A DNA stretch of 64,000 nt from NCBI GenBank assembly GCA_964424455.1, contig CAYRJA010000005.1, positions 3,344 through 67,343 on the forward strand. Reading direction: 5' to 3'. The position numbers were made by a program, and so were the translations under genes. The notes beneath the pieces were generated by a model. The model had not been told where the DNA came from. It worked only from the letters and a program-made list of their open reading frames with translations, and did not search any database. The stretch is from an uncultured Bifidobacteriaceae bacterium (GTDB lineage: Bacteria > Bacteroidota > Bacteroidia > Chitinophagales > UBA10324). Shown piece after piece: positions 1 to 35,347 of this stretch (the stretch's first letter is position 1; each line of letters begins with the position of its first letter).

Positions 1-122
1 GCGTTAGTTGCCGCCGCTTCCGGCTTGTTATCAGGATGTTTTTCCTTCCACAACCATAAGCACGCGATAATAACTAATAGAATAATCACGATGTAAGTGA
101 TTGTTTTTGTTGTCTTGTTCAT
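1..122 (-). CDS. small membrane protein, partial (C-terminus outside the window)
   Basis: The minus-strand ATG (cat at 120-122) opens MNKTTKTITYIVIILLVIIACLWLWKEKHPDNKPEAAATNA, with one hydrophobic helix. It reads off the window edge, so it is absent from the ORF track. Confidence 0.35.
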   Translation of the reverse strand, partial: MNKTTKTITYIVIILLVIIACLWLWKEKHPDNKPEAAATN

Positions 123-131
123 GTGTGAGTT

Positions 132-326
132 TTAAGAAAAAGTCATAGCTCCGCTAGGGATTGTGCCATTGCTGTAATCAATAGAAATTTGTGTGCCTGA
201 TCGCTCAGCTTTATCGGCATTATCATTATTATCTTTGGTCAGTTGCTTTTTTTGTGCAACTAAAGCGATAATGATAATCACCGCTATGGCTCCAAGTGTC
301 CATCCCATCCAAGGTTTCCATTTCAT
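132..326 (-). CDS. small single-helix membrane protein
   Basis: 64 aa with helix WTLGAIAVIIIIALVA. It belongs to a co-directional, tightly packed run of small genes. Confidence 0.5.
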   Translation of the reverse strand: MKWKPWMGWTLGAIAVIIIIALVAQKKQLTKDNNDNADKAERSGTQISIDYSNGTIPSGAMTFS

Positions 327-352
327 AGTATTGAATTTTAAAGTTTAAAAAA

Positions 353-625
353 TTATTGACCGGGTTGTGCTGTGAAAAGACTGTTTTCAGGATCAGCGCC
401 TAATTTACCTGCGTTCAGGTTGTTAGGGTCGGCGCTAATCGGTTTATCCTGCCCTGTTACAGCTTTATGATTCAGCCGGGTAACATGTGCCTCCAGTACT
501 AACCGACCTTTATCAATTTTCAGGCGTTGAAAATCCATATACGCTTTCAATGTCAGGTGAAATACGATAAGGATTAACACCATCATAATCATCACATGCA
601 AAAATTTATTTTGGTAGAAGCTCAT
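353..625 (-). CDS. small single-helix membrane protein
   Basis: 90 aa with N-terminal helix FLHVMIMMVLILIVFHL. Same strand and tight packing as its neighbours. Confidence 0.5.
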   Translation of the reverse strand: MSFYQNKFLHVMIMMVLILIVFHLTLKAYMDFQRLKIDKGRLVLEAHVTRLNHKAVTGQDKPISADPNNLNAGKLGADPENSLFTAQPGQ

Positions 626-666
626 AGCTATTTGAAGTTTATTTATTTAAAAAATCACTTTGTGTT

Positions 667-1137
667 TTAGAATTGATATTTAATTTGTTTAGAAGCGTAA
701 TCGGCATTAACATCACTGCGCTGATCGTAGCTCAGGTTTCCGGTTACAAACTGAGGCAGCGATTGTGATGAGCCGGTTGGCAGACCGAAAAAATATTCCT
801 GCCGTGTACCAAAAGCGGCAATCAGTTGTGTAACATCTGCATCGTTTTTCATTTTCTTGAGTGTTTCCACTGCAGCCGGTTTGTCATCGGAAACGGCGGA
901 ATAGCGCAATGCTTCGTAAATGCTATCGGCATAACCGTTATAAGCGAATTTATCGTAGCTTAATAATGCTTCCTGATGTTTCGCTTTTTTTATGGCTTCG
1001 TCCGCAGTTTCTTCGGCGGCTTTTTCCTCCTTGCTTTTACGAAAAAATTTCAGATAAATAATTAAAGCAATCAGCAGCACGGCTATAATTAACCATGTTG
1101 TTTTGTTGCTTATTATTTTTTGAAATTGTTCGTTCAT
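667..1137 (-). CDS. membrane-anchored hypothetical protein
   Basis: 156 aa with helix TWLIIAVLLIALIIYL followed by a soluble domain. It starts 1 nt after the stop of the upstream gene. Confidence 0.6.
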   Translation of the reverse strand: MNEQFQKIISNKTTWLIIAVLLIALIIYLKFFRKSKEEKAAEETADEAIKKAKHQEALLSYDKFAYNGYADSIYEALRYSAVSDDKPAAVETLKKMKNDADVTQLIAAFGTRQEYFFGLPTGSSQSLPQFVTGNLSYDQRSDVNADYASKQIKYQF

Positions 1138-1138
1138 T

Positions 1139-1528
1139 TTAAGAAGCGGTTAAGGCGCTGTACGATTTTTTAGCTCTATAGTCGTTGTAAATTTTCCAGA
1201 GTTCCTCATGCTTGGCGTTATCAATAGGATCAGTGCCATTTATCTTTAGAACGGATATCGACGAATCTAATACAGCCATGAAGGAGCCGCTCTTGCTACC
1301 TTTATAAACATCGGCTACTTTTTGATCTTTATATCGGGCTAAAACAGTCTCATAGAACCAGGTACCAAGGTTAGGAGCCGCGCTGTCTAACGCCTTGTAA
1401 GTGTCGGCGTCATCAGTGTTAATGGCAGGAGCGGGCACTTTGTCGCGGAAAAGAAAGTACCAAACAGCCAGTCCAATAAGGAGAGCAGCAAGAATGTAGA
1501 GCGGTAAATAGTCTTTCAGATTTTTCAT
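1139..1528 (-). CDS. membrane-anchored hypothetical protein
   Basis: 129 aa with helix LPLYILAALLIGLAVWYFLF. It abuts the next gene. Confidence 0.6.
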   Translation of the reverse strand: MKNLKDYLPLYILAALLIGLAVWYFLFRDKVPAPAINTDDADTYKALDSAAPNLGTWFYETVLARYKDQKVADVYKGSKSGSFMAVLDSSISVLKINGTDPIDNAKHEELWKIYNDYRAKKSYSALTAS

Positions 1529-1540
1529 AATGTATTATTT

Positions 1541-1783
1541 TTATTTTGATTTAAAAACGAGCAAGAGAATAACTATCATAAACACAAGCAGGAATACTCC
1601 TCCGTAGAGTGCAGTGTTGTCCGGCTTATCATCAAATAATCCGGGCGGCACTTGCGCCGGTGTTACCGGTGCGCCTTTTAAAAGTTCTAATACACTTGTT
1701 ATAATTCCCATGCCTGTTGAATTGGTTGAGCCGGATGAATCAGTTTCGGGTAAAAAAGCAGTTGCTTCTCTATTATTAGCCAT
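1541..1783 (-). CDS. small membrane protein (C-terminal helix)
   Basis: 80 aa with C-terminal helix LYGGVFLLVFMIVILLLVF. There is a 1-nt gap to the upstream gene. Confidence 0.55.
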   Translation of the reverse strand: MANNREATAFLPETDSSGSTNSTGMGIITSVLELLKGAPVTPAQVPPGLFDDKPDNTALYGGVFLLVFMIVILLLVFKSK

Positions 1784-1784
1784 G

Positions 1785-2006
1785 TCATCCGGTTTTCTTT
1801 TTACTTAAAAAAAATAATCCTGCTAAAAACATAAGCACTGCCAACACGATAATCACATAGAGGAGCGTATGATCTTGCGGTTTAGCTTGCTCGTTATTCA
1901 TTTTGTTAATGGCATCAGCAATAGCTTGGTTGTAGTTGGCAGTGGCGTTTTTCATTTTCGCTCCGCCAAACACTAACAGCTCTAAATCATCTACAAACTT
2001 GCTCAT
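1785..2006 (-). CDS. small membrane protein (C-terminal helix)
   Basis: 73 aa with helix LLYVIIVLAVLMFLAGLFFL. A 4-nt ATGA-type overlap links it to the upstream gene. Confidence 0.55.
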   Translation of the reverse strand: MSKFVDDLELLVFGGAKMKNATANYNQAIADAINKMNNEQAKPQDHTLLYVIIVLAVLMFLAGLFFLSKKKTG

Positions 2007-2239
2007 GATGCGGTGGCGTTTTTTCTGAGGGAATAAGGAATTAATTCGAAGAAGAAAGGATTTTCATCTCGGGCTAACTGTAACATATAGTCTTGCACTT
2101 CTCCTTCACTCATAGCAGGCCAATCCACGCCGTTTTTGGTAAGCACTTCTAAGACAAAGCCACGATGATTGTGAAGAAGTTCGACAATTAACGCTCTTAA
2201 AAAATCTTCGTATGTATTAAATTGATTGCGCGGTTCCAT
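2003..2239 (-). CDS. small soluble hypothetical protein
   Basis: 78 aa with no hydrophobic helix. It overlaps the downstream gene by 4 nt. Confidence 0.55.
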   Translation of the reverse strand: MEPRNQFNTYEDFLRALIVELLHNHRGFVLEVLTKNGVDWPAMSEGEVQDYMLQLARDENPFFFELIPYSLRKNATAS

Positions 2240-2271
2240 CCTTTATTTAGTTTTTTGTTAAGGAGCAAGTT

Positions 2272-2298
2272 CTGTGAGGCAGCCAAACTGCCTCACAG
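2272..2298 (-). terminator. strong hairpin downstream of the 212-aa ORF
   Basis: Perfect 11-bp stem ctgtgaggcag / ctgcctcacag with loop ccaaa, 42 nt after the stop at 2340. No clear U-tract follows on the minus strand, so it may act as a stabiliser or attenuator rather than a classic terminator. Confidence 0.4.
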
Positions 2299-2339
2299 AT
2301 GCTTATTCCAGTAAAACACCAAACCGAAATTTATTTCGA

Positions 2340-2978
2340 TTAAGGAAGCATCTTCCTATATCCTAAAGTGATGTCGAGTACAGCAGTTGTAACATTACCA
2401 ATAGGCAATGAAGCGGTAAGCGCCGATTCAGCCCGGAACCACTTATTGACCATTACCCAGTTGGCAATAGTAAAATCAGTATCCGTTCTTTTTGGTATCA
2501 CCGTGTTAGGGAAACTGAAGTAGGACCCGCTTGAGTTTTGGTCGGCGACAACGAATTTCAACTTCACGGCGTTCAATGTTGCTTGGCTGTCTGCCTGCAT
2601 TTTCACCGTGGTGAGGAAAAACTTGTTTTCCGCTGTCATATTTTTGATAACGGTGTTGGTATTTGAGCCAAAGTCACCGTCCCAGGTGAGCGTACCGTTA
2701 GTAATGTTATTGGTACCGGCAGCATCACCGATATAAAACACCTGTGCTGTACTCTGAGTGTTGGAGACACGCACCCAGATATAACGCTCTTCGCTCCATG
2801 CTTTGCCAGCAGGTAGGGCGGGTAGGTTTACCGGCGAAACAGGCGAATCCTGCGCACCATTTACATCCCGAAAAGAACCACCGCCTCTGTTGTTAATGGG
2901 CGAAGTGTTTATTGTAAAGAACGCCTTAGTTCGTGCGTTCCCATTCATTTCGCGGGTCAAAAAAGAATATTTTTTCAT
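2340..2978 (-). CDS. beta-rich hypothetical protein (candidate structural/capsid protein)
   Basis: 212 aa with no TM helix, rich in T/N/S/V/G and with alternating beta-like patterns. It is the largest ORF heading the small-membrane-protein run, and hairpins lie on both sides. Confidence 0.6.
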   Translation of the reverse strand: MKKYSFLTREMNGNARTKAFFTINTSPINNRGGGSFRDVNGAQDSPVSPVNLPALPAGKAWSEERYIWVRVSNTQSTAQVFYIGDAAGTNNITNGTLTWDGDFGSNTNTVIKNMTAENKFFLTTVKMQADSQATLNAVKLKFVVADQNSSGSYFSFPNTVIPKRTDTDFTIANWVMVNKWFRAESALTASLPIGNVTTAVLDITLGYRKMLP

Positions 2979-3039
2979 ACTTGAAAAAGTTTGGTTTAAT
3001 GAATTTTAGTGAATTCTGAAAACCAAAATTGAGCATGAT

Positions 3040-3086
3040 TGAAAAACCGTACTTCGTTCAACCCCGATGGCGCTTGATGAACGAAG
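3040..3086 (-). terminator. putative rho-independent terminator after the HTH/SET gene pair
   Basis: 9-bp stem cttcgttca / tgaacgaag (3052-3060 / 3078-3086). On the minus strand it is followed by GTACGGTTTTTC. The loop is long at 17 nt. Confidence 0.35.
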
Positions 3087-3180
3087 AACTTTTCAGTTTA
3101 AACATGAATTTTCGATTTGAATAATCGAAGGTCATTTTATTAAACGATTCGGCGACAGGAGCCGAGGCGGTTCGCCTTTA

Positions 3181-3510
3181 TCACCAGAATTTAATTAAGC
3201 GGATCAAACTATCGTCGCAGGGAAACAACTGTAACAAGTGGCAATAATCGCCAAGGATTTCATCGCCAGGGTGAATATGATGGATGGCATACATGGCTAT
3301 GCCGCCGTTTTCTTTTTTTAAGTAAATATTCGGGCGGTTAAAATGATTGACATTGCTGCCTATCGCCGTTTCAGTGTAACACTGCGCGAATTTTTTTTCC
3401 ATAGATTTTTTCCGGGTAAAGGCATACCCGATAAAATCGTTAGCTTGAATTTCACAATCCGTAAACAATCCGTTGCCATGAAGGGGAGAAGGGGCTACAA
3501 ATAGGGACAT
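3181..3510 (-). CDS. minimal SET-domain protein (putative protein-lysine methyltransferase)
   Basis: 109 aa carrying SET hallmarks: HGNGLFT (GxG region), NHFNRPN (NHxxxPN) and GDEILGDY (ELxxDY-like). Confidence 0.75.
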   Translation of the reverse strand: MSLFVAPSPLHGNGLFTDCEIQANDFIGYAFTRKKSMEKKFAQCYTETAIGSNVNHFNRPNIYLKKENGGIAMYAIHHIHPGDEILGDYCHLLQLFPCDDSLIRLIKFW

Positions 3511-3749
3511 TATTCGTCAACATCTATTTCGGGGTGACCTAACCCTGATTCGTTATTAAAAATTAGCCGCACAAATCGAGGATAAATTCGATTTCTTTTT
3601 TTCCAATAGGAGACCGACATGCCTTTAATCCGAAGAAGTGCGATTTCTTTTCCGAGTGTGGCTACCGATACTTCATACAGGCGCGCCAATTCAATCTTAG
3701 TGTAAGTCTTAATTGGCGCCGGCTCTTTGCGAGCGTATTTATCCGACAT
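3510..3749 (-). CDS. small helix-turn-helix DNA-binding protein (DUF4248-like by recollection)
   Basis: 79 aa with HTH-like YTKIELARLYEVSVATLGKEI. Its stop overlaps the SET gene start by 1 nt (TAATG). Confidence 0.55.
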   Translation of the reverse strand: MSDKYARKEPAPIKTYTKIELARLYEVSVATLGKEIALLRIKGMSVSYWKKRNRIYPRFVRLIFNNESGLGHPEIDVDE

Positions 3750-3842
3750 ATTGGCTGATTAGATAGGCAAAAATAAACTTAATTTGCAACAATAGACGAA
3801 TCGGCTACCTTTGTTTGTATTAATCAACAAAAAACGATTACC

Positions 3843-4166
3843 ATGTTTGGATTAGATATTTCAAAATTAGCGGGAAAAATGATTACCCCCGATGTAATCA
3901 AAGGACTATTATTGACTACCATTGAACCACAGTTGCAACAAAATGAAATGTACTCGCTGCTAATGAGCAGCGACAGGAAGCGAGTGATTCTTTTCAAGTG
4001 CGTTTTCGCGTTGTCAGACGATGGGAAAATGGCAATAACCCACTCAACAGAAGTGGACATAGATCAACTAATAGCCAAAATAAAAGAGAGCATCATCGGC
4101 AAATCATCGATGAGCGAAGCCGACAAGAAAGAGTTAGACGAATTTCAAAAAAAGTTTGAGCAATGA
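3843..4166 (+). CDS. hypothetical protein
   Basis: 107 aa, divergent from the HTH gene. A 4-nt overlap links it to the next gene. Confidence 0.55.
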   Translation: MFGLDISKLAGKMITPDVIKGLLLTTIEPQLQQNEMYSLLMSSDRKRVILFKCVFALSDDGKMAITHSTEVDIDQLIAKIKESIIGKSSMSEADKKELDEFQKKFEQ

Positions 4167-5089
4167 AAAAAATTTTATACGAAACAGCAGAGCCATCCGC
4201 ACCTGCTACGCCCATCGCTTCTGCGCCGGCTGCGCCTTCTGTGCCACTCGATGTTCCCGATCATGCTCCAGCTGCTACATCAGCGCCATCAGCGCCATCA
4301 ACACCACCGGAAAAATCTGTGCTTAGCATTATTGAGGCGCTCAACAAACCGACAGCATCGGAAGTAACGCCGCCATCCGTTTCAGCTACCGGAACGGAAA
4401 AAATAAAGCAGGAAATTATTCAGGAAGCGGCTTCTGATTCCGGCGCGACTGCTCCCGGAGCGTCTGTTACACCAAAGCCATTGACTGCAGCAGATATTGC
4501 GCTGAATAAGATGTTCGCCCGCTCCATGGTGGAAGGAGCGGACGAACTTAACAGTTTCGGCTGCAAAGAAGTCAGCGGCGAGGAGAAGAAGGAAATATTT
4601 CAGGCAGCCGACAAAAACAAGGATGAACTGGCACAGTTCATTGTTTTGATAATGGAGAAAAACGGCGGCAAGGTACCGATATGGCTTTACGGTATATGGC
4701 TGGCAGGCAAAACTTTCGGTCCACCTTGGATATTAGTCGTGAAGCTTCGCGGCAAAAACAAGCTGATAAAAAAGCTGACTCAAGAAGCCGAAGCAGCCAA
4801 GAATAACACTTCTGATGAGTTGCGTAAAAAAGAGGAGGAGATAGCGCGGCTGAAAACGGATTTGGAGGCGACACAAAAAGCGAATGTGGAAGTAAAAACG
4901 GATTTAATTCCTGGCGATGAAAAGAAAAAGCATATTGAAAAAATTGCTGCGGAATTAGATAACGCGGAAATTCCATTGCTGCCCGGTCAAAAGCAAAAGG
5001 ACGGGACGATTTATGCGCCTTACGGGCTTAAACCGGACGGCACTGTTAAGCGAAGCAATGGCGGTAGAAAACCAAAATCAAATTCTTAA
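4163..5089 (+). CDS. hypothetical protein with Pro/Ala-rich N-terminus, hydrophobic segment and coiled-coil/basic C-terminus
   Basis: 308 aa with APSAPATPIASAPAAPSVP-type low complexity, a hydrophobic PIWLYGIWLAGKTFGPPWILVV segment and a charged heptad-like tail. Confidence 0.6.
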   Translation: MKKILYETAEPSAPATPIASAPAAPSVPLDVPDHAPAATSAPSAPSTPPEKSVLSIIEALNKPTASEVTPPSVSATGTEKIKQEIIQEAASDSGATAPGASVTPKPLTAADIALNKMFARSMVEGADELNSFGCKEVSGEEKKEIFQAADKNKDELAQFIVLIMEKNGGKVPIWLYGIWLAGKTFGPPWILVVKLRGKNKLIKKLTQEAEAAKNNTSDELRKKEEEIARLKTDLEATQKANVEVKTDLIPGDEKKKHIEKIAAELDNAEIPLLPGQKQKDGTIYAPYGLKPDGTVKRSNGGRKPKSNS

Positions 5090-5208
5090 TTGATTTCTTA
5101 TAAATCAATTTATTAATAGGAAAATGATTTTTCCACTCAAAAACCCACAGGGAAGGGGGGTATAAATCCAATAAATTGATTTTTATAATTGAATAATAAA
5201 ATGAATTT

Positions 5209-5844
5209 ATGAATGAGATAGAGCGGGAAGATTTCTTTAACAAATGCTACATAGTAGCTGGCACCAATAACACTGGAAAAACCAGAACTGTCATCAGTAT
5301 CATTGAACAATTGACCACGTTACGAACATTAGTATTAGACCCGGGCGAAGTAAAAAAATGGAATTCCTATCCGACCTTAGATTTAAAAAACATATCCACT
5401 TTTACAGCAATCAAAAAATGGAGACCCGACACCGATCTATCAAAATCTCTCCGAGAAAAAGGCGGCAAGATGTTACAGTTTGTCATCAATCATTACCAAA
5501 CCGGCGTACTTGTAGTGGATGATGCCCGCATGATAGTTGACGCAGGGCTATCGGACGCTATGGTGCAATTAACCGTAAAACGAAAGAATAACGAGTTGAT
5601 TACCTTCCTGATATTCCATTCTCTCGGACAGGTGCCACCACGTGTTTACGATCACAGCACCCATATCATGCTTTTCCAAACAAGCGACAACAAAAGTAAG
5701 TGGTGGGATAAAGTACCCGGCGACCAGAAGATATATGAACAGTGGATAAACCGCGTGAACGAGCGCGCCTCCGCTACGCCCGGTTATTTTGAGATATTAG
5801 AACTGCAGGATTTTTACAAGTGGAAAAAAATAGGATTGCAGTAA
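5209..5844 (+). CDS. small P-loop NTPase
   Basis: 211 aa with Walker A AGTNNTGKT and Walker B VLVVDDA. Confidence 0.7.
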   Translation: MNEIEREDFFNKCYIVAGTNNTGKTRTVISIIEQLTTLRTLVLDPGEVKKWNSYPTLDLKNISTFTAIKKWRPDTDLSKSLREKGGKMLQFVINHYQTGVLVVDDARMIVDAGLSDAMVQLTVKRKNNELITFLIFHSLGQVPPRVYDHSTHIMLFQTSDNKSKWWDKVPGDQKIYEQWINRVNERASATPGYFEILELQDFYKWKKIGLQ

Positions 5845-5870
5845 TCATCTTTTTTAAAAGCAAGGCAAAA

Positions 5871-5916
5871 CATCCCCAATCCCTCTCTATGCAGCTAAGA
5901 GGGTTGGGGATGTTTT
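5871..5916 (+). terminator. rho-independent terminator
   Basis: Stem catccccaatccctct / agagggttggggatg followed by tttt, 27 nt after the ATPase stop. Confidence 0.65.
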
Positions 5917-6028
5917 AGAGCCGTGTATTTTGCGTTAGGGATTGCAGCGGAAATCCTTTTTTGTTTTTCACAAAAAAGATTGAAGCGGAAAGCCCGACGG
6001 CATTGTGCCAACAGAGCCGCAGCAGGAT

Positions 6029-6176
6029 AAAATCAATTTTTCTTTTTTCGGAATTTGGCGCAAAAAAAACAAAATGAATGCTGCGCCGCATGAAGGCGAC
6101 CATGCGAAGCGGGAAAGCGAAATAAGGAGCAGGATTCATCCGACAATCAATTTCCGAAAAAAGAAAAATTGATTTT
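6029..6176. repeat. perfect 25-bp inverted repeat flanking a 98-bp spacer
   Basis: aaaatcaatttttcttttttcggaa (6029-6053) is the exact reverse complement of ttccgaaaaaagaaaaattgatttt (6152-6176), checked base by base. Confidence 0.85.
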
Positions 6177-6217
6177 TATGGAAGGGAGCGGCACGGTTGG
6201 CGCTATGCCGGAACGCC

Positions 6218-6736
6218 CTATGATAAACGGATTTGTTCTAAGTATTCCATCGTAATTTTATGTTTACTCCACACGCGCTTTTTAATTTTTGCAAGTGAAA
6301 TGACATCTTCTTCATTATAGCGCAAGACGATTTTCCTCTTTATCGGGTCTCGCCAGTCGTGGAATACTTCAAAAATGCTTTGTTTATATTTTATAGTATC
6401 GCGCTTATAGCCGAATTTTTCTTCAAAATCGCACAACTTGTAACGGCTTTCATTGGGATATAAATCTTTGAAGACTTTCAGCAGATTTATACAGAGGTAT
6501 TTCTGGCGTATATTAAGATTGAATTCTTTCTCTAACATTCCTATATCAGGTCCATAAAAGAAAAGGCAGCCGTAGCGAGCAGGGCGCAATAACTGTAACA
6601 CTTTTTTTCGTGAAATCATTTTGCCGTAATACTGACCACTGATAATTGGCTTTCGGAAATGATGGTCTGCATACGCGTATCCGATCAGAAATATTTTCTG
6701 ACTGATATACCATTCTGCATCAAGGTATAAATCCAT
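6218..6736 (-). CDS. RNase H-fold (YprB/PolB-exonuclease-like) domain protein
   Basis: 172 aa. The N-terminal LYLDAEW, then YGPDIGML and YNEEDV, give a DEDD-like acidic pattern. The family assignment is from recollection only. Confidence 0.55.
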   Translation of the reverse strand: MDLYLDAEWYISQKIFLIGYAYADHHFRKPIISGQYYGKMISRKKVLQLLRPARYGCLFFYGPDIGMLEKEFNLNIRQKYLCINLLKVFKDLYPNESRYKLCDFEEKFGYKRDTIKYKQSIFEVFHDWRDPIKRKIVLRYNEEDVISLAKIKKRVWSKHKITMEYLEQIRLS

Positions 6737-6751
6737 GCCGAAAGGTATCAG

Positions 6752-7168
6752 CTACCGGAGTAGCTGACATAGAAGAGAACGGCAAAGATTTTCGCGGCGT
6801 TTTAGCTCTGCGCTAATTTTCTGATGTATATGGGTGAAGTTTTCCATGCGCTCAATGGCAAAAGAGAAATGTTCGTAGCGTTGCCTGGCTTTGACTTCGC
6901 CGAGTTCAATGGTTTGAATTAGTTCGTATTTTCGAATGAACGGAATAACAGAACCGATTAAATCACGCTCGAATATTTTCGCTTTCCAAAGTCCGAAACA
7001 AAGCCAGAAGTAAAATTCGAGTTCTTCATAGCTGTCCGTCGCAAAGACAAAGCAGTTGGCGTTGGGAGAGTGTGCAGGGCGACCTGCGTTTTTCCCTTTG
7101 TTTAGGATAAAAAAATGATGTTGCGGCAGCGTATTTGCCGGGTTGTAGGTGCTGATTTTTTTGTGCAT
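6752..7168 (-). CDS. hypothetical protein (weak resemblance to a single restriction-modification specificity/TRD half-domain)
   Basis: 138 aa, 15 nt upstream of the exonuclease-like gene. The pattern FFILNKGKNAGRP...CFVF...LEFYFWL...GSVIPFI resembles Methylase_S-type TRDs, but this is not verified. Confidence 0.45.
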   Translation of the reverse strand: MHKKISTYNPANTLPQHHFFILNKGKNAGRPAHSPNANCFVFATDSYEELEFYFWLCFGLWKAKIFERDLIGSVIPFIRKYELIQTIELGEVKARQRYEHFSFAIERMENFTHIHQKISAELKRRENLCRSLLCQLLR

Positions 7169-7609
7169 AACAGAAAAGTTTTTATCACTTTTCCATCATG
7201 CGCAGGGGTATCTGTCAAGGGTGCTGTTGCCCCATCACGAGATAAAACAGCACTTGTCTTGCCCTTGACTGATACATCAGAAGGGCATAATTTTGTGATA
7301 AAAATTTACTGTTATAGCAAGGGTTAATCAGCACAGGAAACAGAGCTGTAATGCAGGCGCAGATACTCTTTCAGCAACATATCAAGCGGCAAGAATGTTT
7401 AAAAACTCGCTCAGGTTTGATAGTTCGAAAATGGAAGTGTCGGGGGTACATAGCAAGAATCAGTAACAAGAACAACCTTGCTTCAATAATTATACTGGAG
7501 TAAAAGAGCAGAAGATAAAGATTGGTTCCTGCTATATAGTTGTTAAATTCTACAGTCTGTCAGAAGTTGTAATTTTCTACTGAGCTATCTGTTAATCTCT
7601 CATAGTTCT

Positions 7610-9280
7610 CTATCTCACAATAGCTACTTTTCCATAATAATTATATCCCTGTCCACTAAGCCGCATGATGTAAATGCCGTTAGGTAACAGGGCGGGTAAT
7701 CGTAATGACTTGATATTGGAACCATGTGATGACTGGATGATTTGGTTATGTACCTGACGACCATCGGTAGCATATACCATGATTTGCAACTCACCACGAA
7801 TTTCGGAACTGTAATCAATTGTAATCTCATCCTTGACAGGGTTTGGATACATCTTCAGAAGCTGACTTGATTGTGGGGTTTCAATTGAAGTTGTGATGGT
7901 ATCACCAAAACTCCAAAGTTCTTCGTAGGTTAAGTATCGGGCTTTATAGAATAATTTATTATTAAGTCCTGCAAATCCAGGCGGAATTCCAATTCCGTAA
8001 CTACCTGTGTACCATGACGGCTGGTGCCATGTGGTGTTTTCAGGGCTGCCGTCACTTTGAAACAAAACCTGATCACCTTGTGCGTTTTTGGCAGAAAAGT
8101 AAAGCTGTCCTTTGTAAGTATAAAACGCATCGGGGTTCGTAAGTGAATCCTGCGGAAGAAGCAGTTGTGTTCCTTCTTCTGTACCATCACTTAACCAAAG
8201 TAAATAGGGGTCTAAAAAATTTGGCATCTGCTTAGATAAAAAGTATAGGTGCTGATTGTACACATACAAATCATCGGGAAATCCGGAGAGTGTAAAAGAA
8301 GGTACAATATCTTTTAACAAGACTGTTCCTGAGGCGGTACCGTCGGTTTTCCATATTTCATAAGAATACTCCGGCTTATTTGCCACGAAATAAATATGAT
8401 CATCAATCGCTGCAATTTTTCCTGGCATTAAATCAACACCTGACGCACTTCCGGGGTTGAGGTCAAGCAACATTTGAGTACCGGCGACAGTTCCGTCGGT
8501 GTACCAAAGTTCTTCTCCATGAATACTATCATTGGCTGAAAAATAGGCTTTACCTCCCATCTCTGCAACTGCAAACACAGCACCAAAAGCGCTTCCATTC
8601 GGGTTGATATCTTTAAGCAGTTTGGTACCTACGGAGGTGCCATCGGTAGTCCATAGTTCGTGGCCAACTGTACCGTTATCGGCGATAAAGAGCAATTTTC
8701 CGGACAGCACAAAAAAGTGTGTTGGCAAAGCTGAGGCACTTCCCGGATTTATATCTTTCAACAGTTGAGTACCGGATTCACTACCATCAGTTACCCATAA
8801 TTCGTGACCTGAAAGCCCGTCATCAGCACCAAAATAACACTTCCCGTTAAAACTGAATACTTCAAAAATATCTGTGGAACCATTTGGATAGGGTTGAGTG
8901 TTAATCTCTTTTACAAGGTGGGTTCCCTGTGGGCTGCCATCAGTAACCCATAAACCACCACCACTGCTAACATGCTGCGCTTTTGCCTCCATAAAAAGTA
9001 AATTGTCGCCTATCCCAAATATTTTGTTTACAAACAGGTAGTTTCCCTGGCTGTCAAGTACAGCCGTTGGAGTGGTAGAAGAGCCGTCGGTGTAATATAA
9101 CACGGAGTTCATCGAGTCATTGTCGGCAAAAAAATATATCCGGTCTTTGAATACAGTCAGGTGCCGGGGGTTGGTATTGCGCGTTTTTGTAGTCTCATAT
9201 CTTACGAAGTATTGTGAAAAAACAGGAGCGGTGGTTCCAAGAAACATTGCCAGTAAAATGAGTAGTCGGATTTTATTCAT
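7610..9280 (-). CDS. ELWxxDGT-repeat secreted protein with T9SS C-terminal sorting domain
   Basis: 556 aa with signal peptide MNKIRLLILLAMFLGTTAPVFSQ. Repeats include GHELWVTDGSESGTQLLKDINPG and GHELWTTDGTSVGTKLLKDINP. The C-terminal KMYPNPVKDEITI...GIYIMRLS...GKVAIVR is Por-type. Confidence 0.85.
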   Translation of the reverse strand: MNKIRLLILLAMFLGTTAPVFSQYFVRYETTKTRNTNPRHLTVFKDRIYFFADNDSMNSVLYYTDGSSTTPTAVLDSQGNYLFVNKIFGIGDNLLFMEAKAQHVSSGGGLWVTDGSPQGTHLVKEINTQPYPNGSTDIFEVFSFNGKCYFGADDGLSGHELWVTDGSESGTQLLKDINPGSASALPTHFFVLSGKLLFIADNGTVGHELWTTDGTSVGTKLLKDINPNGSAFGAVFAVAEMGGKAYFSANDSIHGEELWYTDGTVAGTQMLLDLNPGSASGVDLMPGKIAAIDDHIYFVANKPEYSYEIWKTDGTASGTVLLKDIVPSFTLSGFPDDLYVYNQHLYFLSKQMPNFLDPYLLWLSDGTEEGTQLLLPQDSLTNPDAFYTYKGQLYFSAKNAQGDQVLFQSDGSPENTTWHQPSWYTGSYGIGIPPGFAGLNNKLFYKARYLTYEELWSFGDTITTSIETPQSSQLLKMYPNPVKDEITIDYSSEIRGELQIMVYATDGRQVHNQIIQSSHGSNIKSLRLPALLPNGIYIMRLSGQGYNYYGKVAIVR

Positions 9281-9514
9281 AGTGTGTTTTTTTATAGAGT
9301 GATAGAGACAAATATAAAAATTTCTAAGTTCAACTAATTGTATATGATATGATTTATGAATAAAGAATAATATTTTGGATATAAGACAATTTTAAATTGT
9401 AACACTGATTATCTTTTCGATTATTTTCAGTTAGATGCGGGTTCAAGTCAGCAAAGAAGTATCAAGTCAGGTATTTAACTATCAGATATAAAGGTATTTG
9501 TCATACTATTGCGT

Positions 9515-9707
9515 CATTCAAAGGGTGTATGAATATTTGCAGCAACAATTATATTGCTCCGCAGGAGCAAAGGTTTGGTAATAACTTGAATGAGAAGGTT
9601 GTTGCGTCCCTTCGGGACGCTTCAGAGTCTCTGTATTGGTTTTTTTACCAAGCTCTTATGCCTACGGCATAAGTAATCCCTGCTATTATTCATACACCCC
9701 ATTCAAA
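9515..9707. mobile_element. MITE-like 177-bp element (9523-9699) with terminal inverted repeats and an 8-bp direct duplication
   Basis: CATTCAAA|GGGTGTATGAATA ... TATTCATACACCC|CATTCAAA. The 13-bp TIR is perfect and extends to 18 of 20 matches. Three internal 7-8-bp hairpins sit at 9554-9570, 9604-9620 and 9655-9673. Confidence 0.55.
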
Positions 9708-9778
9708 ATGCCTATAAAACTTTGGATTACTTTTTGTAAAATACGCTTCAAAAATTTAATCGGTTTATAAAAATATTT

Positions 9779-18734: not shown

Positions 18735-20930
18735 ATGAAAAAAGTGATTCTAATTTTAATTATGTTAATCTCTGCATACGGATTACATGCACAGCATGTG
18801 ATGGGCACTGTAACAGAGGATGAAAACGGGAAAGAAATTCCTGTTATTGGTGCTTCAGTAATTTTTGTTGGAACATCAGTTGGAACGAGAACTGATGAAA
18901 TGGGCATGTTTCATCTGGATAAACCGGATAAAAATGCCACTCAGCTTGTGATCAGCTATGTCGGGTACAAGAATGATACTATTCCTGCCGAAGGTACGGA
19001 TATAAAAGTGGTGTTACAGAAGTCAATTGAACTGCAAGGTGTAGAAATAACAGCTAAGGATAATGGATCCTACATATCTCAACTTAAACCATTAAAAACA
19101 GAAGTACTTACGACTAATGAACTAAGAAAAAATGCTTGTTGTAACCTCTCTGAAAGTTTTGAGTCAAATCCGACTGTTGATGTGGCATTTTCTGATGCTG
19201 TAACAGGTGCAAAACAGATTCAACTGTTAGGTCTGTCCGGAGTTTATGTTCAGACACTGACAGATGTACTGCCAACTTTACGGGGGCTGGCTACTACTTA
19301 TGGACTTACTTACATTCCCGGCTCATGGATAGAATCTATTCAAATGAATAAAGGAACCGGCTCAGTAGCCAACGGTTATGAGTCAATCACAGGGCAAATA
19401 AATGTAGAGCTGAAAAAGCCGGAGATTAGTGATAAACTTTTTGTTAATCTATATACAAATTCGGAACAGCGTGGAGAAGCTAACCTGTTATGGTCGCACA
19501 AGCTGAACAGCAAGTGGAGTACAATGCTGCTCACACATGGTAGTGGGTTGCAACAAAAAATAGATCACAACCGAGATGGATTTTTAGACATTCCATTGAG
19601 CAAACAATTAAATGTTTTTAACCGATGGAAATTTGAGTCAGGTAAGCATATAGAGGCAATGTTTGGCGCTAAAGCATTGGTTGACCAGAAGAAAGCAGGT
19701 CAGACAATTTTTAACTTCGCTGATGCTCGTCCTGATTCTTCGCGTTATGGAATTAATCTGAACACTACAAGGGTGGAAGCTTTTTTGAAAAGCAGTTACA
19801 CTTCATTAACGAAGGAATATCAGAGTGTAGGAATCCAGCTTTCAGGGATATATCATCAGCAGGATGGATTTTACGGAGTGAGAAATTATTCAGGTACTGA
19901 AAATTATTTCTATTCCAATATGATTTTTCAATCTGCTTTTGACAATACAATGCATACATACAGAACAGGATTGAGTTTTGTGTATGACGATATTGATGAA
20001 AAGTTTGGAGAGTTGAATTTAAGAAGAACCGAAATTGTACCGGGAGCATTTTTTGAATACACATTAGACAATTCTAAAAACTTTGCAATGGTGGCAGGTG
20101 TTCGTGGTGATTACAATAGTACTTTTGGTTTTGTATTCACTCCGCGTGTTCATGTAAAATACAATCTAACAAAGACTACCGTGTTAAGAGCATCAGCAGG
20201 CAATGGATTCAGAACAGTAAATATTTTCTCAGAGAATGCTGCATTTCTTGCCAGCTCAAGAGAATTTATTATTAAAGAGAAATTGAATCCCGAACGGGCA
20301 TGGAATGGCGGAGTCAATCTTACACAAAACTTTCATATAGGTAACAGAGAGGGAACATGGGGCGTTGATTTTTACAGAACACAGTTTCAGAATAAAATAA
20401 TCGCAGATGTATATTCTAATCCACAGCAGATTGTGTTTTACAATCTGAGAGGAGAGTCTTATGCCAACAGTTTTCAGACAGATATAAATATGGAGGTGGT
20501 AAAAAATCTGAATGTCCGGCTGGCTTATAAATACAATGATGTGAAAGAAACCATAAATGGAAAACTTTCTGATAAGCCATTAGTGCCTAAGCAAAGAGCT
20601 TTGTTTAATATTGCTTACGACACACCGGATAAACACTGGAAGTTTGATTTTACTACACAGTGGGTTGGCGAACAGCAGTTGCCTGTTACAGAAAGCATAT
20701 TCCAGATTCCGGATCATTCTCCCGATTATTTCCGGCTGCTTGGTCAGGTTACATACATGATGAAGAAATGGGAATTCTATGTCGGTGGAGAAAATTTGAC
20801 AGATTATACCCAGTCCAATCCTATTATTGCAAGTAATGATCCTTTTGGTCCCTATTTTGATTCTTCCGTAGTATGGGGACCAATCACAGGACGAATGTTC
20901 TACGGAGGATTACGATTCACAATTAAATAA
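18735..20930 (+). CDS. TonB-dependent receptor with N-terminal carboxypeptidase-regulatory-like domain
   Basis: 731 aa with a signal peptide, a CarboxypepD_reg-like GTVTEDENGKEIPVIGASVIFVGTSVGTRTDEMGMFHL, plug and barrel regions, and a C-terminal GRMFYGGLRFTIK. Confidence 0.85.
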   Translation: MKKVILILIMLISAYGLHAQHVMGTVTEDENGKEIPVIGASVIFVGTSVGTRTDEMGMFHLDKPDKNATQLVISYVGYKNDTIPAEGTDIKVVLQKSIELQGVEITAKDNGSYISQLKPLKTEVLTTNELRKNACCNLSESFESNPTVDVAFSDAVTGAKQIQLLGLSGVYVQTLTDVLPTLRGLATTYGLTYIPGSWIESIQMNKGTGSVANGYESITGQINVELKKPEISDKLFVNLYTNSEQRGEANLLWSHKLNSKWSTMLLTHGSGLQQKIDHNRDGFLDIPLSKQLNVFNRWKFESGKHIEAMFGAKALVDQKKAGQTIFNFADARPDSSRYGINLNTTRVEAFLKSSYTSLTKEYQSVGIQLSGIYHQQDGFYGVRNYSGTENYFYSNMIFQSAFDNTMHTYRTGLSFVYDDIDEKFGELNLRRTEIVPGAFFEYTLDNSKNFAMVAGVRGDYNSTFGFVFTPRVHVKYNLTKTTVLRASAGNGFRTVNIFSENAAFLASSREFIIKEKLNPERAWNGGVNLTQNFHIGNREGTWGVDFYRTQFQNKIIADVYSNPQQIVFYNLRGESYANSFQTDINMEVVKNLNVRLAYKYNDVKETINGKLSDKPLVPKQRALFNIAYDTPDKHWKFDFTTQWVGEQQLPVTESIFQIPDHSPDYFRLLGQVTYMMKKWEFYVGGENLTDYTQSNPIIASNDPFGPYFDSSVVWGPITGRMFYGGLRFTIK

Positions 20931-20939
20931 CTAAATACT

Positions 20940-21299
20940 ATGAAAACAATCAACATCATTTCAGCTCTTTTAGTACTTCTTTCCTTTCAGAATGCCTTTT
21001 CAGCATCCTTTAGTGGAGGAAAAGAAAAAGTGGTAATTCAGACTTCTGCAACTTGCGAGTCGTGCCAAAGCAGGATAGAGAACGCATTAAACAACCTTAA
21101 GGGCGTAAAGTCCTGTTCTCTGAATCTTGACGATAAGAAAGTAACAGTAGTTTACAACCCGAAAAAAACTACAGTAGAGCAGATTAAGAAAACAATTTCA
21201 GACACAGGTTACGATGCAGATGAAGTGAATGCAAATCAAAATGCTTATAACAAACTGCCGGGATGTTGCAAGAAAGGCGGTCACGGAGATAATCATTAA
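20940..21299 (+). CDS. heavy-metal-associated (HMA) domain protein
   Basis: 119 aa with a signal peptide, the CxxC motif TCESCQSRIENAL, and the C-terminal CCKKGGHGDNH. Confidence 0.8.
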   Translation: MKTINIISALLVLLSFQNAFSASFSGGKEKVVIQTSATCESCQSRIENALNNLKGVKSCSLNLDDKKVTVVYNPKKTTVEQIKKTISDTGYDADEVNANQNAYNKLPGCCKKGGHGDNH

Positions 21300-21339
21300 G
21301 TTTGCAGAAAATTTCTAAATCATTTTTAATTCGCTAATC

Positions 21340-21633
21340 ATGAAGTTGTTAAAAATCTTTTCAGCAGGACTATTAGTAGTTCTCATCGCTTGTAATCAAC
21401 AAAGTACAAAGCCGGAAGTTGTTACAGATACTCCTGCAAACACAATGGAGCAGGATGAATCTCTTATCAATGTGGACATAGCTAAACTCGCAGGCGATAA
21501 AGATTTAGTCTGCGGCATGTCGCTGAAAGGAGGCATTGCAGACACTGTAACACACAGCAGCAAACTCTATGGGTTTTGCAGTACCGAATGTAAAGATGAG
21601 TTTATTAAAAACCCTTCTCAGTATCTGAAATAA
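21340..21633 (+). CDS. YHS/TRASH-type metal-binding lipoprotein
   Basis: 97 aa with lipobox-like LIACN, plus LVCGMSL and YGFCSTECKDEFIKNPSQYL. Confidence 0.7.
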   Translation: MKLLKIFSAGLLVVLIACNQQSTKPEVVTDTPANTMEQDESLINVDIAKLAGDKDLVCGMSLKGGIADTVTHSSKLYGFCSTECKDEFIKNPSQYLK

Positions 21634-21636
21634 GCT

Positions 21637-22296
21637 GTGGAATTAAAAAATATAAAACCGTACCATTACATCTATGTTTTGGTAGTTATTGTAGTGGTTG
21701 TAGGTGCATGGTTTTCGTATAACAGTTCGAAACCGGTTATGCTGCTACCTATTTATGGAGAACTGAACGCAGACAGTAGTTATCATTCTATTCCTGCGTT
21801 CAGTTTTACAGACCAGTCAGGTGTAACAGTTACTAATCAAACATTTGACAGCGGTGTTTATTTAACTGATTTTTTCTTTACACATTGCCCGTCTATATGC
21901 CCGAAGATGTCCGGTAATTTGGAAGAACTTGCAGGAGAATTTAAAGATGAGCCACGGTTGAAAATCTTATCTCACACAGTTGACCCTATGAGAGATTCCG
22001 TTTCAGTTCTGTTGAAGTATTCCAAAAAGTACAATGCCAATCCTGAACAGTGGCATTTTGTAACAGGTGCAAAGAGTGATTTATACGATATTGCCAGAAA
22101 AGGATATTATCTGTCAGCAACTCAGGGAGATGGCGGTGAAAATGATTTTGTACATACACAGAATATGGCTCTTGTGGATTGGAACAGACACATCCGTGGG
22201 TTTTATGACGGTACAGACAAAATTGCAATGAAAAAATGTGCAACGGATATTAAGCTATTGCTAAAAGAGTACGACTGGAAGAAGAACAATAAATAG
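21637..22296 (+). CDS. SCO1/SenC-family copper chaperone
   Basis: 219 aa with a GTG start, a TM anchor and the thioredoxin-fold motif FFFTHCPSICPKM. Confidence 0.85.
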   Translation: MELKNIKPYHYIYVLVVIVVVVGAWFSYNSSKPVMLLPIYGELNADSSYHSIPAFSFTDQSGVTVTNQTFDSGVYLTDFFFTHCPSICPKMSGNLEELAGEFKDEPRLKILSHTVDPMRDSVSVLLKYSKKYNANPEQWHFVTGAKSDLYDIARKGYYLSATQGDGGENDFVHTQNMALVDWNRHIRGFYDGTDKIAMKKCATDIKLLLKEYDWKKNNK

Positions 22297-22301
22297 CTGA
22301 T

Positions 22302-22826
22302 TTATTTTTTGATACATACCACCTCGCTGAGTTTATCATGCCATGTTTGCTTTTTGTCTGAAACAAAGTAGGCAAGACAACTGAGTATAGAAGGGATAAC
22401 TGCGATTATAATAAATACTAAATATACCCAAGAGCGTATCATAAAATTCCTGTAGGGAGGCATACCTAATGTATGTTCTGATACGAGTTTAATGCCCACT
22501 ATTCGTTTTCCCACTGTACCACCGGATGCTTCCATAAGTGGTGAATAAAGCAGAACCCAAATCATAATTGCCAAAGCAGGCATTGCCTGACTTAAGCCGG
22601 TCATGATATAATCTGCATTATAAATCTCATCTTTCTTTATAAAATAAAATGCAACAATCTGAATACTATATGTAATTAATAAAATGATGGCAGTATCAAT
22701 CAACCGGGAAATTACTCTCTGTAAAAAGCTGGCATATACAGGAGGGTTAGTTTCCTTTTCCACCTCTTCTATGATGTGATTCAGAAACTTTTCTACCGGA
22801 TCATTTTGTGCTGTAGGAGATACCAT
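22302..22826 (-). CDS. RDD-family membrane protein
   Basis: 174 aa with RLIDTAIILLI, GTVGKRIVGIKLV and WHDKLSEVVCI. Confidence 0.7.
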   Translation of the reverse strand: MVSPTAQNDPVEKFLNHIIEEVEKETNPPVYASFLQRVISRLIDTAIILLITYSIQIVAFYFIKKDEIYNADYIMTGLSQAMPALAIMIWVLLYSPLMEASGGTVGKRIVGIKLVSEHTLGMPPYRNFMIRSWVYLVFIIIAVIPSILSCLAYFVSDKKQTWHDKLSEVVCIKK

Positions 22827-22873
22827 ACTGATTTAATATCAAAAGTAATAAATAGAAAAAACAATAGAATCGT

Positions 22874-23377
22874 TCATTCGATACTATTTCTTTTCCCAAG
22901 TTCAATCACTTCAAGATTCTTTATTATTCCATTGTCAATTTCAAATTTCACAATAGTGCGCATAATATGAAAACCACTCTTGCCTGCTGCTCCGGGATTG
23001 ATGTGAAGCAAGTTGAGTTTCTTATCAGGCATAACTTTGAGAATATGAGAGTGCCCGCAAATAAAAAGTTTAGGAGGGTTCTTATAAATTTCTTCCTTCA
23101 CCTTTATATCGTAATGACCCGGATAACCGCCAATATGAGTCATCCATACATCTAAGCCCTCTATCGTAAAACGGCTATTGAGAGGAAACTGCTGTCGGAT
23201 TTCACTTCCATCAATATTACCATAAACACCCCTCAATGGTTTAAACTCTTCTAATGTTTTGGCAACATCAGGTCCGAAATCTCCGGCGTGCCATATTTCA
23301 TCGCAAGAACAGAAGTGATCAAGAACTCTTTCATCGAGATAACCGTGCGTGTCAGAAAGCAGTCCGATTCTTTTCAA
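22874..23377 (-). CDS. YfcE/MJ0936-family metallophosphoesterase
   Basis: 167 aa with LSDTHG, WHAGD, GNID and CGHSH. Confidence 0.85.
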   Translation of the reverse strand: MKRIGLLSDTHGYLDERVLDHFCSCDEIWHAGDFGPDVAKTLEEFKPLRGVYGNIDGSEIRQQFPLNSRFTIEGLDVWMTHIGGYPGHYDIKVKEEIYKNPPKLFICGHSHILKVMPDKKLNLLHINPGAAGKSGFHIMRTIVKFEIDNGIIKNLEVIELGKRNSIE

Positions 23378-23396
23378 GAAAAATTTTTATATCAGA

Positions 23397-25202: not shown

Positions 25203-25208
25203 ATCCTC

Positions 25209-27376: not shown

Positions 27377-27414
27377 AGGAAAATTCAGAGGTTGCGAAAA
27401 TAGAGAAAAATACT

Positions 27415-27969
27415 TTGAGCTATGTCTTATTTACTCCTTATTATTATATTAAGAGTTATGTTTCTGTAAATTCGCAGAAAGTTTATAAAAGAGTGAAAAC
27501 TGAAAATATAGAAAACGGGTTATCTTATTTTTTTGCGGATGAAGTTTTGTACGATTTACCAGATGAGAAAGAAGAGATTGTATTTGAAGGGGGAAATAAA
27601 AAAAGGATATTGTTACTCTTTAATAATTCATTGACAGAAAAAATTTCAGGAACAGAGAAAGAAATTCTGACACGATTACTCACCGCTTTAAAGTCTTCAA
27701 TAGATGATATTGCGATTGTGAATACAGCTTTCTCAAATCAGGTGAGTTTCAGACAACTTGATAAACAATTCAAATTCGATTCATTAACAGCTTTCGGTGT
27801 TACACCAACTGAAATAAAGCTGAATATTGAAGCGCCATTGTATCAAACGGTTCATTTTGGAGCAAGTAAATTATTATTCTGTGAATCACTTATTGTGATT
27901 GATAAGAATAAAGACACCAAATTGAAATTCTGGACTCATTTTTCTCCATTATTTTTTGCTGAAAAATAA
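27415..27969 (+). CDS. hypothetical protein
   Basis: 184 aa starting at TTG. No motif was recognised and the true start is uncertain. Confidence 0.45.
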   Translation: MSYVLFTPYYYIKSYVSVNSQKVYKRVKTENIENGLSYFFADEVLYDLPDEKEEIVFEGGNKKRILLLFNNSLTEKISGTEKEILTRLLTALKSSIDDIAIVNTAFSNQVSFRQLDKQFKFDSLTAFGVTPTEIKLNIEAPLYQTVHFGASKLLFCESLIVIDKNKDTKLKFWTHFSPLFFAEK

Positions 27970-27975
27970 TTTGAA

Positions 27976-28548: not shown

Positions 28549-28650
28549 GTTCTGTATCTTCTATTCACACCCTGCTGTACATACTTAAACAATTCTTTTT
28601 CGCAAATGCAACGAAAGTCATTACTTTTAAGTCCTTTAAACTGACAACAG

Positions 28651-35337: not shown

Positions 35338-35347
35338 ATTTATTGTG

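Follow-up and report, generated by a model that had tools for sequence, protein, structure and literature searches.

Four groups of described phages come closest to the locus treated here, a block of genes at the left end of a 64,000-nt stretch of DNA (contig CAYRJA010000005.1, positions 3,344–67,343; hereafter the window) from an uncultured bacterium in a sludge metagenome. The Corticoviridae/Vinavirales, comprising PM2 and PM2-like proviruses, have small genomes (~10–15 kb) that are often integrated in aquatic bacteria; they combine a P9 packaging ATPase (218 amino acids, aa, in PM2; PHROG family phrog_2666) with a cluster of tiny membrane-protein genes between the coat and spike genes, and with divergent early and late operons that include small regulators. 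The Tectiviridae (PRD1, Bam35, phiG2) have a P9 ATPase as well (227 aa in PRD1), along with many small membrane proteins, a virion-associated muramidase and transglycosylase, and a spike complex. The Thermus phages P23-77 and IN93 (Matshushitaviridae/Helvetiavirae) have genomes of ~17 kb that encode a 224-aa packaging ATPase, endolysins, many small structural proteins, and two coat proteins, VP16 (173 aa) and VP17 (291 aa), which are described in the literature as single jelly rolls. The Finnlakeviridae (FLiP group), finally, infect Bacteroidota and are small and lipid-containing, with a major capsid protein (MCP) that is undetectable by sequence. Some members of the FLiP group are putative prophages of Bacteroidetes, and the group is characterized by single-stranded DNA (ssDNA), an M13-like rolling-circle replication (RCR) Rep protein, and the absence of a packaging ATPase (PMC5894146).

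Window positions 1–7443 very likely form the right-hand part of an integrated mobile element. The element is integrated at a transfer RNA (tRNA) 3′ end of a sludge Bacteroidota related to Chitinophagales/'Sphingobacteriales'. We read it, with a probability of roughly 60%, as the provirus of a temperate tailless phage from a lineage not yet sampled, and probably of the internal-membrane-containing type; for its virion we infer an internal membrane and a jelly-roll capsid. Genome size class, the candidate P9-type ATPase, the run of tiny membrane-protein genes and the divergent operons with small regulators all recall PM2; the small membrane proteins and cell-wall enzymes recall PRD1; and the size of the candidate coat protein (212 aa) falls in the class of VP16 and VP17. 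There are differences as well. The MCP of PM2, P2 (269 aa, a double jelly roll), has no similarity to any protein of the element, and unlike PM2, in which the ATPase gene lies just upstream of the MCP gene on the same strand, the element carries its ATPase gene 2.2 kb from the coat candidate and on the other strand. No RCR Rep was seen in the element, its host phylum is Bacteroidota rather than Proteobacteria, and tblastn gave no match. PRD1, which is not tRNA-integrated, differs in its linear genome, its terminal protein, its PolB and its 395-aa double-jelly-roll MCP; sequence similarity to it is limited to a weak ATPase profile match. Whereas P23-77 and IN93 have two adjacent MCP genes right after the ATPase gene, the element has one candidate on the opposite strand, and its hhalign probabilities to VP16 and VP17 are below 1%. 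Unlike the FLiP group, the element has a packaging-ATPase candidate, and it has no DNA or protein match to Finnlakeviridae. No MCP homology to Corticoviridae, Tectiviridae, Finnlakeviridae or Matshushitaviridae was found by tblastn (50,697 phage records) or by hhalign (<1%). Judged from its sequence, the element appears to be akin in its workings to the PM2-, PRD1- or P23-77-type viruses and a member of none of these families, because MCP homology is absent and both gene order and host phylum are different. Confirmation of the coat protein could make it the representative of a new family.

The mobility of the element is documented by comparison of metagenomes. The window was assembled from sludge run X1; X6 and X7 are other sludge runs, and X2–X5 are wetland/soil runs. 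Host positions 30001–40000 had sequence-word shares of 1.0, 0.56 and 0.37 in X1, X6 and X7, respectively, and X6 yielded 50 identical contigs on host DNA (20001–40000) at depths of 1–5.5. Element positions 1–6000 were listed for X1 and for the wetland/soil runs X2–X5 only (6–8% of words in the latter), and were not among the listings for X6 or X7. Consistently, depth in X6 was approximately zero across 1–7443, save for a low-depth variant at 1603–2670. The right border (attR side, 7443–7450) is defined by a 720-nt X6 contig whose depth of 4.8 equals that of the host: it matches 7444–7621 exactly, whereas the 542 nt before this match do not occur in the window. Just before the equivalent of position 7444 this contig reads ...GCCGGTTCGATTCCGGCTCC, and the final 30 nt of its foreign part are TGCAAATCGTGCCGGTTCGATTCCGGCTCC. 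Joined to GGGTACA (7444–7450), the foreign end can be drawn as a T-stem (GCCGG/CCGGC), T-loop (TTCGATT) and acceptor strand, in the order GCCGG-TTCGATT-CCGGC-TCC and then, across the junction, GGGTACA; the foreign part thus reads as a tRNA 3′ end, with GGGTACA common to the tRNA at the empty site and to the host side of the junction. The window itself contains no tRNA and no copy of the T-arm sequence of the X6 contig. An assembly chimera was considered and rejected because an independent contig of X1 itself (1,255 nt, depth 7.4) spans 7443/7444. The presence/absence comparison called for by the original prediction therefore shows the block not to be core: a near-identical strain lacks it, and the junction falls precisely at the 3′ end of a tRNA. 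The block also reaches beyond position 5844, where it had been thought to end, to 7443, and takes in an RNase_H_2-family gene and a DUF6943 gene. These two genes are assigned to the element because they lie to the left of the junction, in agreement with the presence of both at the end of a second copy of the element.

The element is also found apart from this host. Fragments identical to it at 100% occur in X2, X4 and X5, runs in which no host DNA was found at ≥97% likeness over 20 kb. In X1, depth is 6.7–7.6 over the element and 6.1–7.4 over the flank; this equality indicates one integrated copy per genome, with nothing that points to replication. No RNA runs were found to contain the element. 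The nearest species-representative genomes to the host are a 'Sphingobacteriales bacterium' metagenome-assembled genome (83% MoxR identity) and Flavipsychrobacter (79%), and in the 80 nearest genomes the region upstream of the Bat operon contains nothing similar to 1–9750. The X6 variant at 1603–2670, at 2–3x depth and with a few base differences, coexists with the empty site, and an X7 contig agrees with the window as far as 357 and then diverges; this suggests that several variants or mosaic relatives of the element are present in sludge. Just inside the right border, 7414–7443 (AGTTCGAAAATGG...GTGTCGG) loosely resembles the T-arm of the empty-site tRNA (GGTTCGATTCCGG...CTCC) at a 5-nt offset, which may be a vestige of homology between the phage attachment site (attP) and the tRNA, or chance.

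The second copy comes from another sample, as a metagenome contig of 12,122 bp (L001), which served for all ortholog comparisons given here. Window positions 122–6775 are collinear with L001 positions 8971–27 (tblastx and pairwise alignments), and 15 of 15 open reading frames (ORFs) have L001 orthologs of equal length and transmembrane (TM) placement at 38–80% aa identity. Since these orthologs lie collinearly in an independent contig, the 15 ORFs are real genes. TM helices were called by hydropathy scan, and families were assigned with Pfam and 38,880 PHROG profiles. On the minus strand, the leftward genes begin with a candidate regulator, a 79-aa basic protein with an HTH-like segment (3510–3749; 67% identical to its L001 ortholog) and a 109-aa minimal SET-domain protein (3181–3510; 58%). 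The SET domain named by the original prediction is borne out by Pfam (31 bits at E 3.5e-7, the cut-off being 22.4 bits), while the helix-turn-helix (HTH) label rests on a sequence pattern, with no Pfam HTH match. This pair had been described as divergent from the 212-aa gene; both genes are in fact co-directional with it and upstream of it, and divergent orientation holds for the 107-aa, 308-aa and ATPase genes on the plus strand. Downstream of the pair lies the gene for the 212-aa basic protein (2340–2978; isoelectric point, pI, 9.6; no TM helix), a candidate MCP whose L001 homologue, P0002, is 66% identical.

The 212-aa gene is followed on the same strand by a 78-aa acidic soluble protein (2003–2239; pI 4.8; 53% identity), proteins of 73 aa (1785–2006; 58%) and 80 aa (1541–1783; 40%) with C-terminal TM helices, and membrane-anchored proteins of 129 aa (1139–1528; 67%) and 156 aa (667–1137). 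The last of these has no family in the Pfam and PHROG scans and, at 80% identity, is the most conserved of the small proteins. Proteins of 90 aa (353–625; 79%) and 64 aa (132–326; 47%), each with an N-terminal TM helix, complete the run up to a small single-TM ORF (1–122) that is truncated by the window edge and whose L001 ortholog (8705–8971, 88 aa) is 38% identical. The small minus-strand ORFs therefore number seven complete plus one truncated, rather than the eight plus one counted earlier. Other parts of that description were reproduced by the ORF map and hydropathy scan: seven of the small ORFs have a single helix (six complete ones and the truncated one starting at 122), neighbors are 1 nt apart at 1137/1139 and at 1783/1785 and overlap by 4 nt at 2003/2006, and the 212-aa ORF is TM-free, as is the 78-aa ORF. 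The rightward operon encodes a 107-aa protein (3843–4166; 55% identity) as its first gene, a 308-aa protein (4163–5089), and the 211-aa P-loop ATPase (5209–5844). The 308-aa protein has no family in Pfam or PHROGs; alignment shows a Pro/Ala/Ser-rich N-terminus, a conserved core with a hydrophobic WLYGIWL segment, a coiled coil and a basic C-terminus. The block was correctly, if by a modest difference, said to be more GC-rich than the Bat operon (0.416 for 1–7443 versus 0.369); the rest of the window stands at 0.389, and host windows of 7.4 kb range from 0.359 to 0.412.

The left border of the element is outside both the window and L001, whose ends show no overlap and which is not evidently circular. 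L001 nonetheless reaches 3.4 kb past the point matching window position 1, so that the element measures at least 10.9 kb (7,443 + 3,432). Further small TM ORFs lie in this extension, together with genes for a 146-aa TM-anchored protein that has a PG_binding_1 domain, a glucosaminidase matching phage endolysin PHROGs (phrog_3513, E 2e-49), and a protein with a signal peptide and internal repeats that is cut at the contig end and is 264 aa or longer. In all, ~13 small ORFs with a predicted TM helix are found among the ~19 tightly packed ORFs that follow the coat-candidate gene in L001. L001 also has additional genes, namely three ORFs between the SET gene and the homologue of the 212-aa gene, and one further ORF of 55 aa. 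Its SET ortholog (3656–3988) is followed by one of these extra genes, encoding an 84-aa Lys/Arg-rich protein of histone-like composition (4035–4289; pI 12) that is absent from the window copy.

The ATPase provides the link to described packaging enzymes. The Walker A (AGTNNTGKT) and Walker B (VLVVDDA) motifs previously noted at 5209–5844 are present, and the Walker A core, GTNNTGKT, is canonical. In length, too, the 211-aa protein agrees with PM2 P9 (218 aa) and PRD1 P9 (227 aa). Its single match among the PHROG profiles is phrog_2666 (E 1e-4, residues 15–163), and the 57%-identical L001 ATPase likewise matches phrog_2666 alone (E 7e-5, residues 15–174). PRD1 P9 and PM2 P9 match the same part of this profile at E 1e-64 and 2.6e-50. 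We also built a P9 profile from eight sequences: those of PM2 and PRD1, of three other Vinavirales, of a Vibrio corticovirus and of tectivirus phiG2, and ORF13 of P23-77. Both element ATPases align with it from Walker A, past Walker B and into the following two conserved strands, scoring 15.7 and 20.3 bits; in a search against 2,788 ORF fragments from 1.5 Mb of Bacteroidota DNA, it gave the element ATPases the top single-domain scores (17.4 and 14.9). A search of PDB sequences and tblastn against the phage records returned nothing for the ATPase. A grouping with cellular NTPases, which would have counted against the original prediction, was not observed: the one family that the profile scans return is that of the PRD1 and PM2 P9 packaging ATPases. 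We consider the placement in the P9/A32 family specific, though weak, and the protein is best called a packaging-ATPase candidate.

The 212-aa protein is our candidate coat protein on circumstantial points. It is the sole TM-free protein of suitable size and may be beta-rich; its gene heads a structural-looking run behind its own 200-bp upstream gap; and a 29-nt conserved block and then a GC-rich hairpin come after it. The beta-rich character that the original prediction took as given is hinted at by low-confidence models (pLDDT, the predicted local distance difference test score, of 38 and 32.6), the first of which places approximately nine strands behind a 60-residue unstructured basic N-terminus and, at pLDDT 38, is a hint only. 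A word-indexed search of 5.8 billion clusters, HMMER run exhaustively over 1.84 billion representatives and a second, profile-based round recovered a family of three members: the window protein, P0002, and P0007 (219 aa, 28% identical, encoded on a 778-nt contig). Peptide patterns and a custom degenerate motif located no further member in IMG/VR, GTDB genomes or Joint Genome Institute (JGI) metagenomes, and the motif is absent from 185,579 species-representative genomes.

Several considerations together favor a provirus: insertion at a tRNA site, strain-level presence and absence, and occurrence in host-free samples; genes that are intact in two diverged copies, and a phage-type endolysin; and dense arrays of single-pass membrane proteins accompanied by an ATPase whose only profile match is the P9 family. 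Under this interpretation, the leftward operon would supply the 79-aa HTH-like regulator and the SET protein, then the candidate coat, then the long run of single-pass membrane proteins and, past the window edge if L001 is a guide, the peptidoglycan (PG)-binding membrane protein, the glucosaminidase endolysin and a secreted, spike-like repeat protein. The rightward operon would supply the 107-aa and 308-aa proteins and the P9/A32-type ATPase, which could fill a preformed procapsid, lined by membrane, with the genome. At the left end, beside the tRNA, one would expect the genes for integrase and replication. A more ambitious version, which we advance only tentatively, is that the element founds an undescribed family, or even a higher taxon, of Bacteroidota internal-membrane phages that pair a P9/A32-type ATPase with one small coat protein without sequence kinship to any known capsid protein. 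That coat would comprise ~150 structured residues and a basic disordered N-terminal arm, and would be either an extremely diverged single jelly roll (with one MCP, unlike the two-MCP Helvetiavirae) or a new coat fold.

Several results weigh against the provirus interpretation. The fold searches brought up no capsid fold. AlphaFold2 models of the 212-aa protein were unusable whether built from a two-sequence (pLDDT 38) or a three-sequence alignment (32.6); a Foldseek search of BFVD with the first of these low-confidence models gave no match (best E 0.02, TM-score <0.25); and a PDB sequence search with the 212-aa family returned nothing significant. Comparison by hhalign with PM2 P2, PRD1 P3, P31 and P5, and P23-77 VP16, VP17 and VP11 likewise gave nothing, with probabilities below 1% for P2, P3, VP16, VP17 and P31. 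For the ATPase, hhalign to single P9 sequences was not significant (probability <20%), and Pfam returned no A32 or FtsK match, only a sub-threshold AAA_22. In our own P9 profile search, UvrA P-loops come next at 13.0–13.4 bits, so that the margin of the ATPases is ~2–4 bits, and the L001 ATPase (1307–1939, minus strand) has a deviant Walker A motif, GTNGSQKT, in which Gln replaces the glycine before the lysine. Neither excess coverage nor a circular junction was found for the element; the visible ORFs of the window block and of L001 include no integrase or replication protein, and neither attL nor a direct repeat came to light. The empty site is documented by one contig only. Finally, there are no relatives among IMG/VR or GenBank phages: blastn and tblastn searches of the phage records with the block, the ATPase, the 212-aa protein, RNase_H_2 and DUF6943 gave no match, and peptide-pattern scans of IMG/VR (212-aa, ATPase, 156-aa, 308-aa and RNase_H_2 proteins) identified no locus. 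Microviridae, Inoviridae and tailed prophages had been considered as alternative identities and were rejected, there being no matching hallmark in Pfam or PHROGs.

These gaps leave some room for a non-viral integrative element, such as a genomic island or a small mobilizable or conjugative-like element, in which an FtsK/HerA-type ATPase moves DNA between cells and a minimal apparatus for transfer is built from the membrane proteins, the PG hydrolase and the surface protein. Insertion at a tRNA site and presence/absence polymorphism suit any integrative element. P9-type ATPases and conjugative translocases belong to one superfamily, and one corticovirus P9 homologue is annotated as 'type IV secretory system conjugative DNA transfer family protein'. 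PG hydrolases also occur with secretion and transfer systems, and the negative capsid-fold searches count here as well. Conjugation machines, however, need large proteins, whereas all complete ORFs of the block and L001 are under 310 aa (the ORF at the L001 end is cut at 264 aa), and Pfam gave no relaxase, VirB4, TraG, other Tra, coupling-protein or type IV secretion system family in either. The hydrolase, moreover, matches phage endolysin families at E 2e-49, and the presence of identical element DNA in host-free samples suits a particle better. We therefore regard a transfer island as unlikely.

It is also conceivable, though improbable in our judgment, that the element is a capsid-less pleomorphic virus (plasmavirus- or pleolipovirus-like) or a satellite, whose genome exits in a vesicle studded with the small membrane proteins and whose 212-aa protein is a spike or matrix component rather than an icosahedral coat. 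A gene content dominated by membrane proteins and the lack of a recognizable MCP would both be accounted for, and pleolipoviruses also carry a small P-loop NTPase. But the ATPase has its sole profile match in the P9 family, whose members package DNA in icosahedral membrane phages; genes for an endolysin and a PG-binding protein imply that cells are lysed, not that particles bud; and the 212-aa protein has neither a TM helix nor a signal peptide.

A comparably small chance attaches to a decayed or domesticated prophage remnant that has lost the capacity to form particles and that part of the lineage passes on by vertical descent. Coverage equal to that of the host, the invisibility of integrase and replication genes, the same right-hand neighbors (RNase_H_2 and DUF6943) in L001 and the deviant Walker A of the L001 ATPase would all fit such a remnant. 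Yet the two copies, although 20–60% apart in protein sequence, both keep all 15 ORFs intact, which points to purifying selection; a near-identical strain lacks the element; and the element is present without the host in other biomes. That the block is simply an immobile core envelope gene cluster of the host, as X1 coverage equal to the host and a GC content 2.7 points over the rest of the window might allow, is hardly credible given the empty site at host depth in X6, the absence of the 212-aa motif from the species-representative genomes, the different Bat-operon flank in the 80 nearest genomes and the occurrence of the element in host-free samples.

The element carries several conserved non-coding features. 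Directly after the 212-aa gene, on the minus strand, lie the 29-nt conserved non-coding block (2302–2330) and a perfect 12-bp hairpin (2271–2299). In L001 the block is identical at 27 of 29 bases and is followed by a hairpin at the kept position, with a completely different sequence; the pair is likely a terminator, attenuator or RNA-stabilizing element. The divergent intergenic region (~94 bp, 3750–3842) contains a Bacteroidetes-type promoter ahead of the rightward operon: TTTG (3783–3786), 19 nt, and TAccTTTG (3806–3813), 30 nt ahead of the 107-aa ORF. This arrangement agrees with the Bacteroidetes primary-sigma promoter consensus, and L001 has TActTTTG at the matching place. After the ATPase gene, a terminator-like hairpin with 16-nt arms (5867–5916, plus strand) recurs in L001 at the same place with changed, compensated stem bases. 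It is followed by a Flavo-1 RNA motif (RF01705; 5927–6003, plus strand; 64.2 bits against a gathering score of 42), the only copy in the window. The L001 counterpart (1158–1230, minus strand; 40.6 bits) has the same position downstream of the ATPase, its central stem being replaced by a different paired sequence. Flavo-1 is widespread in Bacteroidetes and its function is unknown (PMC2864571, PMC9723704). Metagenome depth rises at this motif, which fits a multi-copy motif; its candidacy as the attachment site was rejected, since the element goes on for 1.4 kb past it. Between Flavo-1 and the RNase_H_2 gene there is also a 29-nt inverted repeat (6029–6057 and 6148–6176; 97% complementary, with 90 nt between the arms) that is apparently not conserved in L001.

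Among the accessory proteins, the SET protein has a weak match to the MLL1 SET domain in PDB, and this minimal protein is reminiscent of the small virion-packaged vSET of chloroviruses. At the attR-proximal end, convergent with the ATPase operon, are the genes for a 172-aa RNase_H_2 protein with a PolB-exonuclease-like RNase H fold (6218–6736, minus strand; PF13482, E 3e-11; 76% identity to L001) and a 138-aa DUF6943 protein (6752–7168, minus strand; PF22105, E 6e-37), into whose C-terminus the L001 similarity extends. PDB sequence searches with these two proteins gave nothing significant, and they matched no PADLOC defense model, nor did the PADLOC models give any other meaningful match. The two proteins could be cargo, or could have a role in replication or repair.

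Beyond the border, the host flank has features of its own. A 556-aa secreted protein (7610–9280, minus strand) contains repeated 'ELWxTDGTxxGTxLLKDINPG' units and, judged by eye, an apparent C-terminal sorting domain of the type IX secretion system (T9SS) type; none of the 80 nearest genomes was found to have it next to the Bat operon. Between its gene and the Bat operon lies a 177-bp unit (9523–9699) resembling a miniature inverted-repeat transposable element (MITE), flanked by 20-nt inverted repeats, GGGTGTATGAATATTTGCAG and CTGCTATTATTCATACACCC. Its depth in X1 is 60–100x as against ~7x for the host, X6 contigs break precisely at its edges (9522/9523 and 9699), and it has no second copy in the window.

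If the provirus interpretation holds, this locus would be a tRNA-integrated Bacteroidota provirus that combines a P9-type ATPase with an orphan coat candidate. As far as we are aware, no lipid-containing phages of Bacteroidota have been described apart from the ssDNA viruses of the FLiP group, which are without a packaging ATPase, and we know of no mobile-element role for a minimal SET-domain protein or a Flavo-1 RNA. The element has been missed in IMG/VR, GenBank phages, 185,579 species genomes and JGI metagenomes, which suggests that present virus-detection pipelines overlook it. Were the 212-aa protein to prove the coat, its fold would bear on the co-evolution of jelly-roll capsids and A32/P9 ATPases, and the phage may represent a new branch of, or beside, the Varidnaviria.

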